From an uncultured Collinsella sp. (GTDB taxonomy: Bacteria > Actinomycetota > Coriobacteriia > Coriobacteriales > Coriobacteriaceae): a stretch of 64,000 nt of DNA. The position numbers and the translations under genes were made by a program. This document shows, one piece after another, positions 39,460 through 41,051 of the stretch. The number at the start of each line of letters is the position of its first letter. The first letter of the stretch is position 1. The stretch lies in the NCBI GenBank assembly GCA_905208535.1, contig CAJLPI010000004.1:65159-129158 (forward strand). The letters are read 5' to 3'. Below the pieces are notes generated by a model, which worked only from the letters and a program-made list of their open reading frames with translations, ran no database searches and was not told the origin of the DNA.

Positions 39460-39534
39460 GAAAATCCAATCTGAAGCAAGTACAGCTTCTTTAGTATGCC
39501 GCAGGAAGTGACGCCGCGACACTATTCAACAAAA

Positions 39535-40518
39535 CTATCGGACATTTCGGCATGCGATAAGAGCCATAACCTTCGCAGAATTACTTCCCCCACAAAAAGC
39601 TTCCGGAATGCTGTCTTTGTCATACCGGAAGACCGAATTCCCAGTTTTATCGCGTAAGTACTTATAGAAGAAGTCCTCCCAGCTTTTAAACTTCTCACTG
39701 TCTGCAAACGCTTCCGGCTCTTGCAAAACCGCTTTGGCATCTAACCCTGAAATTACGCCGGAGCTCAGCAGAAGCCACTCAAACGACTCGGGAAGACAAA
39801 CCGTAACAGCATCGCGGTGAATGTCTTGCAGCTTAAGGACACGGTCCGCATAGCACCCAAATGCCGCTCCGTCCACAACAACAAACACGCGATCGTCGAG
39901 ATGCTGATCCAACCAGCCCAAAATCGCGCTGTTCGTCATGGCAGAAGCACAGGAAAGCTCACTGTCAGCGAAATGCCGTTCAAAGAACTGGAAACCAGAC
40001 TTACTGTCCTCGCATAGAAGGATAGAAAAGTCCTGTTTTGGCGCCGACCGGGAAATAGCATAACGATGATTCCCACGATCTTGATAAACAGGGACGAAAG
40101 AATGGTATTTTCCGCTCGTCTTAATCTTGTAAATCTCATCCACGCTATACGGAAGATTAGGGAAATCAGCCCTTGAGATCAGCACGAAATAATTCGAGGA
40201 ATACAGCACATGATGGGCAAACTCATCAGAATGAATCTCTTTTAAGCCCTCATCGACAAATACAATCGAGTCATGAACGGACGAAAGCTGGTTTCGCCAA
40301 TCATAATCGGTCAGGGCGACACAGGGACAATCGCATTGCAAGGAAACACCCGACTGCTCGCCCGTTCGTATGTAGTCTGCGACCATGTCAAACAGTGTCG
40401 TCTTACCCGTGCCGCTATCGCCACGCACAATAGTGATGTTCCGCTTGATGGTAAATGTGTACTTGGTTCCCCTGCGGCGGGAAATCTTAACGAAATGCGA
40501 ACCGTTCATAAGCAGCAC
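39535..40518 (-). CDS. module copy 2, large subunit: minimal P-loop ATPase + Toprim/DUF4435-like domain
   Basis: 327 aa. GDSGTGKTTL, IVFVDEG, SNYFVLISR, LPYSVDEI, LLCEDSKSGFQFF, VVDGAAFG, LPESFEW. Collinear with 28469..29467. Confidence 0.8.
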   Translation of the reverse strand: MLLMNGSHFVKISRRRGTKYTFTIKRNITIVRGDSGTGKTTLFDMVADYIRTGEQSGVSLQCDCPCVALTDYDWRNQLSSVHDSIVFVDEGLKEIHSDEFAHHVLYSSNYFVLISRADFPNLPYSVDEIYKIKTSGKYHSFVPVYQDRGNHRYAISRSAPKQDFSILLCEDSKSGFQFFERHFADSELSCASAMTNSAILGWLDQHLDDRVFVVVDGAAFGCYADRVLKLQDIHRDAVTVCLPESFEWLLLSSGVISGLDAKAVLQEPEAFADSEKFKSWEDFFYKYLRDKTGNSVFRYDKDSIPEAFCGGSNSAKVMALIACRNVR

Positions 40519-40962
40519 CTACAGATACGGAATCGACTCGTGAATCAATTCGGCCATGTTGTGAACGATTCGGCCGCTATTCACGACTTTAATTTTAAAA
40601 TCCTCGCGGCCAAAGTCCATCACATGATAGAGATTCACAACGAGCTTGCGGTCTTTCGCCATATCGAGAATCCACTTGGCACAGTTATCACCACAGGTAG
40701 AAGCGTTAAAAATATGCTTACGATCAAATCTCATAAGCAGCAGCGTTTTCACGCCACCAGAAAGCTGGAGCGGGGAAATGGACCCAAGCACAGGGCTTTC
40801 GATGAGGTTTTCGGAGACAACATCCGATCGATCGACATCTTTAATTATCGAGACTGCATAGGGATCCGTAATCCAAGAAGACCGGTAAGAGTTTTTGAAA
40901 TATGTCGCTGTGTTGTAAATCGCTTCTGGCATATCGCCAAAGTAGACGCTTAACACATCCAC
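40519..40962 (-). CDS. module copy 2, small subunit: Walker-A-less ABC-half-like protein
   Basis: 147 aa. YFGDMPEAIYNTATYFKNSY, LSGGVKTLLL, IFNASTCGDNCAKW, VNLYHVM. Abuts the large gene. Confidence 0.8.
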   Translation of the reverse strand: MDVLSVYFGDMPEAIYNTATYFKNSYRSSWITDPYAVSIIKDVDRSDVVSENLIESPVLGSISPLQLSGGVKTLLLMRFDRKHIFNASTCGDNCAKWILDMAKDRKLVVNLYHVMDFGREDFKIKVVNSGRIVHNMAELIHESIPYL

Positions 40963-41001
40963 TCCTAATCATATTGTCTTTATGGTCAACGTAATCATAA
41001 C

Positions 41002-41031
41002 GAAAAGGGCCACCAGATAAACGGTGGCCCC
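41002..41031 (-). terminator. intrinsic terminator directly after rfbA
   Basis: gggccacc/ggtggccc stem with an 8-nt loop, followed by UUUU on the minus strand. It lies between rfbA and module copy 2. Confidence 0.55.
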
Positions 41032-41051
41032 TAAAAGAAAACAAGCCGGCG

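Follow-up and report, generated by a model that had tools for sequence, protein, structure and literature searches.

A DUF4869-ATPase cassette in the dTDP-rhamnose operon of an uncultured Collinsella, probably acquired horizontally and possibly a split-ABC conflict module

In a 64,000-nucleotide (nt) stretch of an uncultured Collinsella sp. genome (assembly GCA_905208535.1, contig CAJLPI010000004.1, positions 65,159 to 129,158 of the forward strand; hereafter the window), the dTDP-L-rhamnose operon is interrupted between rmlA and rmlB by a cassette of two genes, one for a DUF4869 protein of 145 amino acids (aa) and one for a P-loop ATPase of 324 aa. Comparison with related genomes supported a horizontally acquired insertion that segregates among strains, because contigs with an identical RmlA protein and no cassette, cassette-free outgroups, and carriers with the cassette at the same site were all found. 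Taken as a whole, the observations would be best explained, at somewhat better than an even chance, by an acquired cassette that encodes a split ATP-binding cassette (ABC) conflict module and affects the rml genes incidentally; most likely, the cassette has no role in dTDP-rhamnose synthesis. It would be a self-contained unit of ~1.56 kb (terminator, probable promoter, DUF4869 gene, and ATPase gene), lodged as an accessory element in the rmlA-rmlB spacer of a C. aerofaciens-type genome.

The rmlA, rmlB, and fused rmlC-rmlD genes are co-oriented, and their Pfam assignments cover the four enzymatic steps of dTDP-L-rhamnose synthesis (Table 1). The interval between rmlA and rmlB (39460-41051) measures 1592 nt and holds the two cassette genes in the same orientation as the rml genes. 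This agrees with the initial annotation, made from the sequence alone, which had described co-oriented rml genes with a two-gene module in a 1.6-kb gap and 75 nt between module and rmlB, a distance that proved exact; its label for the module, copy 2, likewise fits the complete paralogue (copy 1) and the DUF4869-only copy (copy 3) found elsewhere in the window. The starts of both cassette genes were set by comparison with homologues and deposited gene calls. The DUF4869 open reading frame (ORF) extends at most over 40519-40962, the likely GTG start at 40956 giving the length seen in homologues, and the ATPase ORF extends at most over 39535-40518 (GTG at 40518), the likely ATG start at 40509, which lies 9 nt beyond the DUF4869 stop, giving 324 aa as in homologues. 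An exact-protein look-up of both ORFs with their upstream GTG starts returned no match because deposited gene calls use the shorter starts. For rmlC-rmlD, an alternative start at 38319 would yield 484 aa.

Table 1. Coordinates of the rml genes, the cassette, and related features in the window
Feature	Position	Strand	Remarks
rmlA (glucose-1-phosphate thymidylyltransferase; upstream flank)	41052..41951	-	Pfam NTP_transferase, E=1.2e-74
Intrinsic terminator after rmlA (predicted)	41005..41032	-	11-bp stem, 7 G-C pairs, -19.9 kcal/mol, tail UUUUCGUU
Candidate -10 element TATGAT (putative promoter of the module itself)	40994..40999	-	~35 nt upstream of the start codon
DUF4869 gene, 145 aa	40519..40956	-	PF16163, E=1.7e-57; GTG start at 40956; AGGAG upstream
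Partner P-loop ATPase gene, 324 aa	39535..40509	-	Walker A GDSGTGKTT, Walker B IVFVDEG; acidic alpha/beta C-terminal domain
Spacer between ATPase gene and rmlB, 75 nt	39460..39534	-	no intrinsic terminator; final ~25 nt native to the rmlB upstream region
rmlB (dTDP-glucose 4,6-dehydratase; downstream flank)	38440..39459	-	Pfam GDP_Man_Dehyd/Epimerase
rmlC-rmlD fusion	36865..38388	-	Pfam dTDP_sugar_isom + RmlD_sub_bind; gene calls in contigs L083 and L084
Copy 1 (DUF4869 28020-28469; ATPase 28469-29467)	28020..29467	+	53% / 39% aa identity to copy 2
Copy 3, DUF4869 only	63293..63742	+	48% aa identity to copy 2

An exact look-up of the RmlA protein retrieved nine places, seven of them with the module. 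In contig L081, whose RmlA is identical to that of the window, rmlA, rmlB, and rmlCD follow one another without the cassette, and only 18 nt, containing AAGGAG, separate rmlA from rmlB. The rmlA genes of L081 and the window are 98.4% identical in nucleotide sequence, homology stops exactly at the rmlA stop codon and restarts at 39436, inside rmlB, and the rmlB and rmlCD genes of L081 are only ~92% identical to those of the window. Contig L085, again with an identical RmlA, has the upstream genes of L081, unlike the window, and ends just past the rmlA stop, so that it covers the rmlA side only. Moreover, rmlA, rmlB, and rmlCD were contiguous in the closest outgroups, a Coriobacteriaceae metagenome-assembled genome (L001, RmlA 84% identical) and Senegalimassilia (L002, 82%), and the module was found within ±6 kb of rmlA in 0 of 80 GTDB rmlA loci across bacteria. 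As for carriers, a metagenome scan with a 10-sequence alignment as the query revealed 18 further Collinsella-type contigs with this module allele (L112-L130), of which L124, L125, and L129 were too short to reveal any flank. Counting ~25 other Collinsella contigs overall, the module lay between rmlA and rmlB in every carrier contig with a flank, as it did in a C. aerofaciens isolate.

Among the carriers, the module was 95-98% identical to that of the window at the nucleotide level, with the single exception of L123 (89-90%); identity of the rml flanks was mostly 88-97%, with lower values in a few contigs, and upstream of rmlA the DNA was mostly unrelated. The module is better conserved across strains than its flanks, and spread from strain to strain most likely proceeded via homologous recombination through the flanking rml genes. 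It seems quite unlikely to us that the module is instead ancestral in Collinsella and that the empty alleles (L081 and L085) lost it through a deletion or through the import of a foreign rml allele. Such a history would accord with the presence of the module at rmlA-rmlB in most sampled Collinsella contigs, with the modest identity of the L081 rmlB and rmlCD genes to those of the window, and with the 18-nt spacer and rmlB 5' end of L081, which differ from the 145-nt spacer of L001, whereas the window is L001-like at both ends. Against it stand the module-free outgroups L001 and L002, the conservation of the module beyond that of its flanks, which suggests recent spread, and a G+C content at third codon positions (GC3) of 0.53, far under that of long-resident module copies in other Coriobacteriia, some of which have reached host-like values of 0.84-0.91 (L092 and L104). 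The cassette at rmlA-rmlB thus looks un-ameliorated, as judged from its GC3.

The rmlA-rmlB spacer of L001 also served to place the borders of the insertion. Since the window shares the first ~12 nt and last ~25 nt of this 145-nt spacer, as well as the RmlB start MSEIF, the insert proper probably spans ~41038..39481, within an ancestral spacer of ~145 nt. The comparison with relatives proposed in the initial annotation therefore yielded both insert-free rmlA-rmlB junctions and refined borders. The 18-nt spacer of L081 represents a different allele from the L001-like spacer. The first 10 rmlB codons have a GC3 of 0.5, and a foreign origin of the AT-rich first 8 codons was rejected because L001 shares the MSEIF start and the proximal upstream sequence. 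Neither terminal inverted repeats nor target duplications were found, no repeat pair had one arm in each border region, and neither cassette gene resembles a recombinase; a mobile element of the transposon type was dropped for want of a transposon signature at the borders. Contig L139 (65% identity) at first suggested a second allele at rmlA-rmlB, but its sequence is error-ridden and the module proved to be the one already described. In L130 (6001-6693), a 367-nt deletion was observed within the ATPase gene, with DUF4869 and the flanks intact, and several other carrier contigs contained frameshifts, which may be assembly errors.

The cassette proteins are 98% identical to those of the module of C. 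aerofaciens TSDC17.2-1.1, and two human-gut metagenome contigs match the window at 100% over 16.9 kb. TSDC17.2-1.1 also bears on the description of the interrupted pathway as essential in the initial annotation, which is doubtful: this strain carries the same cassette next to an internally deleted rmlA. On its replicon NZ_OY725717.1 (L090, 13148-13908), rmlA is without codons 21-66, is not annotated, and appears to be a pseudogene. The strain is also without YfhO, one GT2 gene, copy 1, and an acyltransferase. NZ_OY725717.1 was deposited as a 900-kb circular "plasmid 6" but, since it bears the aro operon together with the rml genes and the glycan locus, more probably represents part of a chromosome or a mis-assigned replicon.

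Compositional analysis confirmed the contrast in G+C content noted in the initial annotation. In 300-nt windows, the G+C content was 0.63-0.75 for the rml genes and 0.44-0.53 for the cassette, and GC3 was 0.53-0.54 for the cassette versus 0.96-0.97 for the rml genes (rmlA 0.97, rmlB 0.96) and 0.81-0.89 for the aro core genes. Together with the empty site of L081 and the contiguous rml genes of L001 and L002, the GC3 contrast (0.53 versus 0.97) sustains the horizontal acquisition that the initial annotation had proposed. Positions 1-27889 of the window contain core genes of ~0.6-0.66 G+C, with the aro operon last, and from 28000 to the end, the window is a lower-GC mosaic locus for cell wall glycans, with acyltransferases, an ABC-2 exporter, many GT2 and GT4 glycosyltransferases, YfhO, a WsaF-like protein, DUF2142, a Wzx flippase, and wall hydrolases. 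The surrounding glycan genes have GC3 values of 0.37-0.81, and the rml genes form a conserved high-GC island among them; it is the rml genes that are the compositional outliers of this 36-kb low-GC mosaic locus. In this respect, the locus resembles the rgp and cwps loci for rhamnose-rich wall polysaccharides of Gram-positive bacteria, in which conserved rml genes likewise lie within a low-GC, strain-variable glycosyltransferase region and conserved genes have recombination breakpoints at their edges (PMC9746298, PMC9574508). It differs from the loci described there in that the rml operon itself is interrupted, by genes other than those for glycan synthesis. As a strain polymorphism in a variable glycan locus, the insertion itself is ordinary.

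The effect on the rml genes would follow from the regulatory signals at the two ends of the cassette. An intrinsic terminator is predicted to begin 19 nt past the rmlA stop, with the features of a Rho-independent terminator. The initial annotation had rightly noticed a terminator after rmlA but had placed it at 41002..41031 rather than at 41005-41032, and this terminator is missing from the module-less L081 allele, in which rmlA and rmlB must be co-transcribed, to judge from the sequence, because the gap between them is only 18 nt. The candidate -10 element TATGAT, which may belong to a promoter of the module itself, is analogous to a TATAAT ~32 nt upstream of copy 1, although a consensus promoter scan did not call it. 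On the minus strand of the 75-nt spacer before rmlB, neither a sigma-70 consensus promoter, in keeping with the initial annotation, nor a terminator was called. Carrier strains share 96-100% identity in this spacer, and its 3' part aligns with L001. Transcription of rmlA would stop at the cassette terminator, and rmlB-rmlCD would then probably depend on transcripts that begin at the cassette promoter and run on into rmlB, or on a weak promoter within the 75 nt before rmlB. Since a terminator follows rmlA and none precedes rmlB, read-through from the module promoter would be the simplest source of rmlB-rmlCD transcripts, with a weak, -10-only promoter in the spacer as the alternative; transcriptional coupling of rmlB-rmlCD to the cassette is plausible on these grounds, although the conserved spacer, with its native rmlB-proximal sequence, leaves some probability for such a local promoter. 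Two hairpins were predicted in this region, one of them without a U-tract. In the second (39445-39475, minus strand; UCAGAU...AUGUCUGA), the region upstream of a weak Shine-Dalgarno sequence pairs with the first rmlB codons and encloses the AUG, a fold that could modulate rmlB translation.

The DUF4869 protein matches PF16163 over model positions 1-126 of 128, with 193.3 bits against a gathering cut-off of 28.9, and belongs to a large family whose homologues form at least 5,565 clusters at 90% identity. Its invariant motifs are LSGGxKTL (LSGG being residues 67-70) followed by NAxTCGDNCAxW, which may be read as an ABC signature and a degenerate Walker B/D-loop region, respectively; a Walker A motif is absent. 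For an AlphaFold2 model with a predicted local distance difference test (pLDDT) score of 90.4, nearly all Foldseek matches were ABC-type nucleotide-binding domains, including those of PtuA, P-glycoprotein/MsbA, the SMC3 head, and AriA, with PtuA chains at the top (E=0.007-0.02, probability up to 0.93). In one DUF4869 protein from an NCBI source (P0389, 184 aa), the NASTCGDNCAKWLLKIAESEDRT..ILNTNEI segment is internally duplicated.

The partner ATPase represents a family of 2,027 clusters at 50% identity (E<=1e-3); almost all of these are 320-330 aa long and lack a Pfam domain. Pfam and PADLOC gave only weak matches to the cassette ATPase, confined to the P-loop/Walker A region. Across 75 diverse partners, the Walker A motif G33-x-S35-x-x-G38-K39-T40 and the Walker B motif hhhhD89-E90 were invariant or nearly so, and R26, S35, G38, K39, E90, R116, D171, D216, E244, E247, and E281 were invariant, with E170 nearly so. 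In the AlphaFold model (pLDDT 93.8; predicted template modeling score, 0.91), an N-terminal domain (residues 1-145) combines a beta-hairpin subdomain, with strands 8-14, 19-24, and 28-32 preceding the P-loop, the P-loop itself, and the Walker B strand, and a C-terminal domain follows after a linker as four beta-alpha units and then helices. Foldseek matches were weak but consistent, all being ABC-class ATPases: MutS-beta, PtuA, and Rad50 in PDB, and a viral "ABC transporter" (E=6e-4, probability 1.0) and MutS8 in BFVD. The Walker motifs in a P-loop core behind an antiparallel beta subdomain are characteristic of the ABC class, but the LSGGQ signature expected in the same polypeptide is absent, as the partner has no helical subdomain and its N-terminal domain ends at ~145.

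Since the partner has Walker motifs without a signature and DUF4869 has a signature without Walker A, the two proteins could share a single composite ATP site built from the Walker A/B motifs of the former and the LSGG of the latter. ATP-dependent pairing would then control a metal-dependent effector activity of the acidic C-terminal domain. Such an arrangement recalls asymmetric ABC heterodimers, for example heterodimeric ABC exporters with one degenerate site, in which Walker A/B of one partner likewise faces LSGG of the other; in contrast to the exporters, the presumed halves here are tiny, soluble, and without transmembrane domains, and the gene for the signature protein precedes that for the Walker protein. 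The topology of the C-terminal domain in the model would allow a Toprim or receiver-like metal site. A Toprim nuclease identity was dropped because 30 diverse C-terminal domains matched neither Toprim, DUF4435, or OLD in Pfam nor AriB, GajA, or OLD in PADLOC, in scans with a limit of E<=10 in which HMMER filters drop most matches above ~0.1. The candidates P0358 and P0363 (~500 aa), considered as domain swaps, appear chimeric or truncated and were uninformative.

Among known systems, Septu (the ABC-type ATPase PtuA with the HNH nuclease PtuB) and the PtuAB of retron Ec78 resemble the cassette as two-gene operons built on an ABC/Rad50-class ATPase with a patchy accessory distribution, and PtuA is among the Foldseek matches of both DUF4869 and the partner N-terminal domain. 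The cassette nevertheless does not qualify as Septu: an HNH partner is missing, the neighbor being DUF4869; hidden Markov models of PtuA match only residues 18-58 of the partner (E=0.015-0.04); the ATPase is seemingly split over two polypeptides; and the proteins are much smaller (145 and 324 aa). PARIS (AriA with the Toprim/DUF4435 protein AriB) and the nucleases of the OLD family and of Gabija (GajA), in which an ABC ATPase is fused to Toprim, share with the cassette an ABC-class ATPase combined with an alpha/beta domain with conserved acidic residues. AriA is among the Foldseek matches of DUF4869, and the acidic residues of the partner follow successive beta-strands (E170/D171, D216, E244/E247) in a layout like that of a Toprim metal site. 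Toprim domains, however, have a Glu after beta-1 and a DxD after beta-3, and Pfam and PADLOC profiles recognized no such domain in the partner C-terminal domain; no DxD was noticed in its consensus, only D216-G, and no Toprim protein reached a meaningful Foldseek score for the partner.

The DUF4869 and ATPase genes are adjacent wherever the contig holds adjoining DNA, down to 30% identity, as seen in Agathobacter rectalis, other Coriobacteriia, four viral-contig matches, and ~60 metagenome loci; DUF4869 lies directly upstream in nearly all of them, and the order is apparently reversed in L188 and L191. The pair is known from human-gut Collinsella, Agathobacter, and Ruminococcus isolates and from many gut and rumen metagenome contigs, frequently with several divergent copies in one genome. 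Its surroundings are heterogeneous: among 120 neighboring genes at 28 non-redundant loci, the recurrent families (two to three loci each) were phage-type integrases, serine recombinases, relaxases, HipA, HTH_3, and GT8, and single contexts placed the pair beside a HEPN/MNT pair, near TraG, and near dynamin-like and DUF87 genes. In IMG/VR, only 4 of 2.9 million contigs contain the pair, and five unannotated "Bacteriophage sp." records contain it as well; a phage origin was rejected, the pair being too rare on viral contigs for a typical phage gene.

The pair would act, by analogy with Septu, PARIS, and OLD, as a stand-alone conflict module serving anti-phage defense or addiction. The autonomous operon layout (its own terminator and AGGAG ribosome-binding sites), the patchy, multi-copy, and decaying distribution, and the ABC-ATPase architecture point to this functional class, which we propose tentatively and at rather less than an even chance. 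Several observations weigh against it. Scans of all module proteins with PADLOC, NCBIfam, and PHROGs gave only P-loop-restricted or chance matches; in PADLOC-DB v2, the single defense database searched, the DUF4869 copies had 0 matches and the ATPases matched at the P-loop only (best, LmuB, E=8e-5 over 35 residues), which does not assign them to a defense system. Neither "DUF4869" nor "PF16163" occurred in the literature searched. The structural matches had Foldseek E values of 6e-4 to 0.1 and template modeling scores, normalized to the query, of <=0.44; hhalign of DUF4869 versus the ATPase detected no homology; and PDB sequence searches, both with single proteins and with profiles of the ATPase, the C-terminal domain, and DUF4869, gave P-loop matches only or none below E=0.1. 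The C-terminal domain matched nothing in PDB sequences or, across 30 diverse sequences, in Pfam or PADLOC, so that calling this domain, which has no detectable relative, an effector is a guess. Finally, the modules of Coriobacteriia stand beside wall-glycan genes more often than those elsewhere (the three copies of the window, L098-L103, and L106).

Because of this clustering, a glycan-related role retains some probability. The module might be tied to the production of envelope glycans, for instance as an ATP-driven regulator or quality control of rhamnose wall polysaccharide loci, so that its position in the rml operon would be adaptive. We regard this as improbable. All three copies of the window do lie inside or at the edges of a single 36-kb glycan locus, the module of L098-L103 marks the border of a hypervariable glycan locus, that of L106 precedes a GT8/DUF4422 glycosyltransferase, GT8, epimerase, and DegT are among the neighboring genes, and no terminator separates the module from rmlB. 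Yet azlC and glycerate kinase flank the pair in Agathobacter rectalis, glycan genes are missing from most of the 28 contexts, mobile-element genes are the most recurrent neighbors, strains with an identical RmlA do without the module, and no membrane, sugar-binding, or DNA-binding domain is detectable in either protein.

A narrower version of the conflict-module proposal, namely, a toxin-antitoxin-like addiction module that stabilizes its own DNA (the rml/glycan locus) and has no anti-phage function, likewise appears to be an outside chance. It would suit a compact operon of two abutting genes (0-9 nt from stop to start), copies that are multiple and divergent within one genome, the decay seen in the ATPase fragment of L098-L103, the deletion in L130, and the orphan copy 3, and the HipA and HEPN/MNT neighbors. 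However, no known toxin or antitoxin family was matched by either protein, the two products exceed the size usual for classical type II pairs, and the persistence of orphan DUF4869 and of ATPase-deleted variants implies that neither partner alone is obviously lethal.

The other copies in the window illustrate the multi-copy distribution on which the conflict-module reading partly draws. Copy 1 is preceded by a very stable terminator (~27930-27985, z=-4.4) after aroQ and then by TATAAT, so that its layout of terminator, promoter, and module is the same as that of copy 2. Homology between the window and TSDC17.2-1.1 ends exactly at the aroQ stop codon (27888), and copy 1, together with a convergent acyltransferase gene (29508-30521), was observed as a 2.6-kb indel (27889-30512) relative to that strain. 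An IS256/Mutator-family transposase gene lies 274 nt downstream of copy 3 (window 63293-64000; L192, 5001-6296). The contig ends at this gene in all four contigs shown (six carry it), which suggests that the insertion sequence element displaced the partner of copy 3 and that the assembly broke here because of the repeat. Pairs of divergent modules, in tandem or separated by a few kilobases, were also seen in gut genomes of lower G+C content (L152, L169, L179 [3910-6936], L180, and L181); multi-copy paralogy is therefore general in the DUF4869-ATPase family. In L098-L103, a 138-aa ORF directly after the complete module (7236-7652) shares 38-39% identity with the C-terminal part of the ATPase and looks like the remnant of a second module; the glycan genes beyond it differ although the module is identical, which marks a hypervariable locus border. 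Elsewhere in the glycan locus, the YfhO ORF as listed (GTG at 34338) and the GT2 gene before it have 95 nt in common (34338-34432); deposited YfhO calls are of 803 aa, and the true start is probably farther downstream.

The insertion offers a natural experiment, as strains with identical RmlA differ by a cassette that introduces a terminator midway through the dTDP-rhamnose operon, and a comparison of carriers with empty-site strains could reveal how an accessory gene rewires a cell wall pathway in an abundant gut actinobacterium. The gene family is nevertheless a more valuable lead than the insertion, being widespread and unstudied and having an unusual predicted split-ABC design. Reading all parts jointly, one might see a new, very widespread family of miniature split-ABC defense systems in gut Actinomycetota and Bacillota that lodges preferentially in the phage-receptor loci of Coriobacteriia, with transcription of the receptor-sugar genes rmlB and rmlCD wired to the module in the present Collinsella lineage, and that may also promote the recombination by which rhamnose wall-polysaccharide loci become mosaic; as a whole, this joint picture is a long shot. 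Should the pair indeed be a defense or addiction system, a new and very compact type would be added to those known, and it would help to explain the hot spots of variation beside phage-receptor polysaccharide loci.

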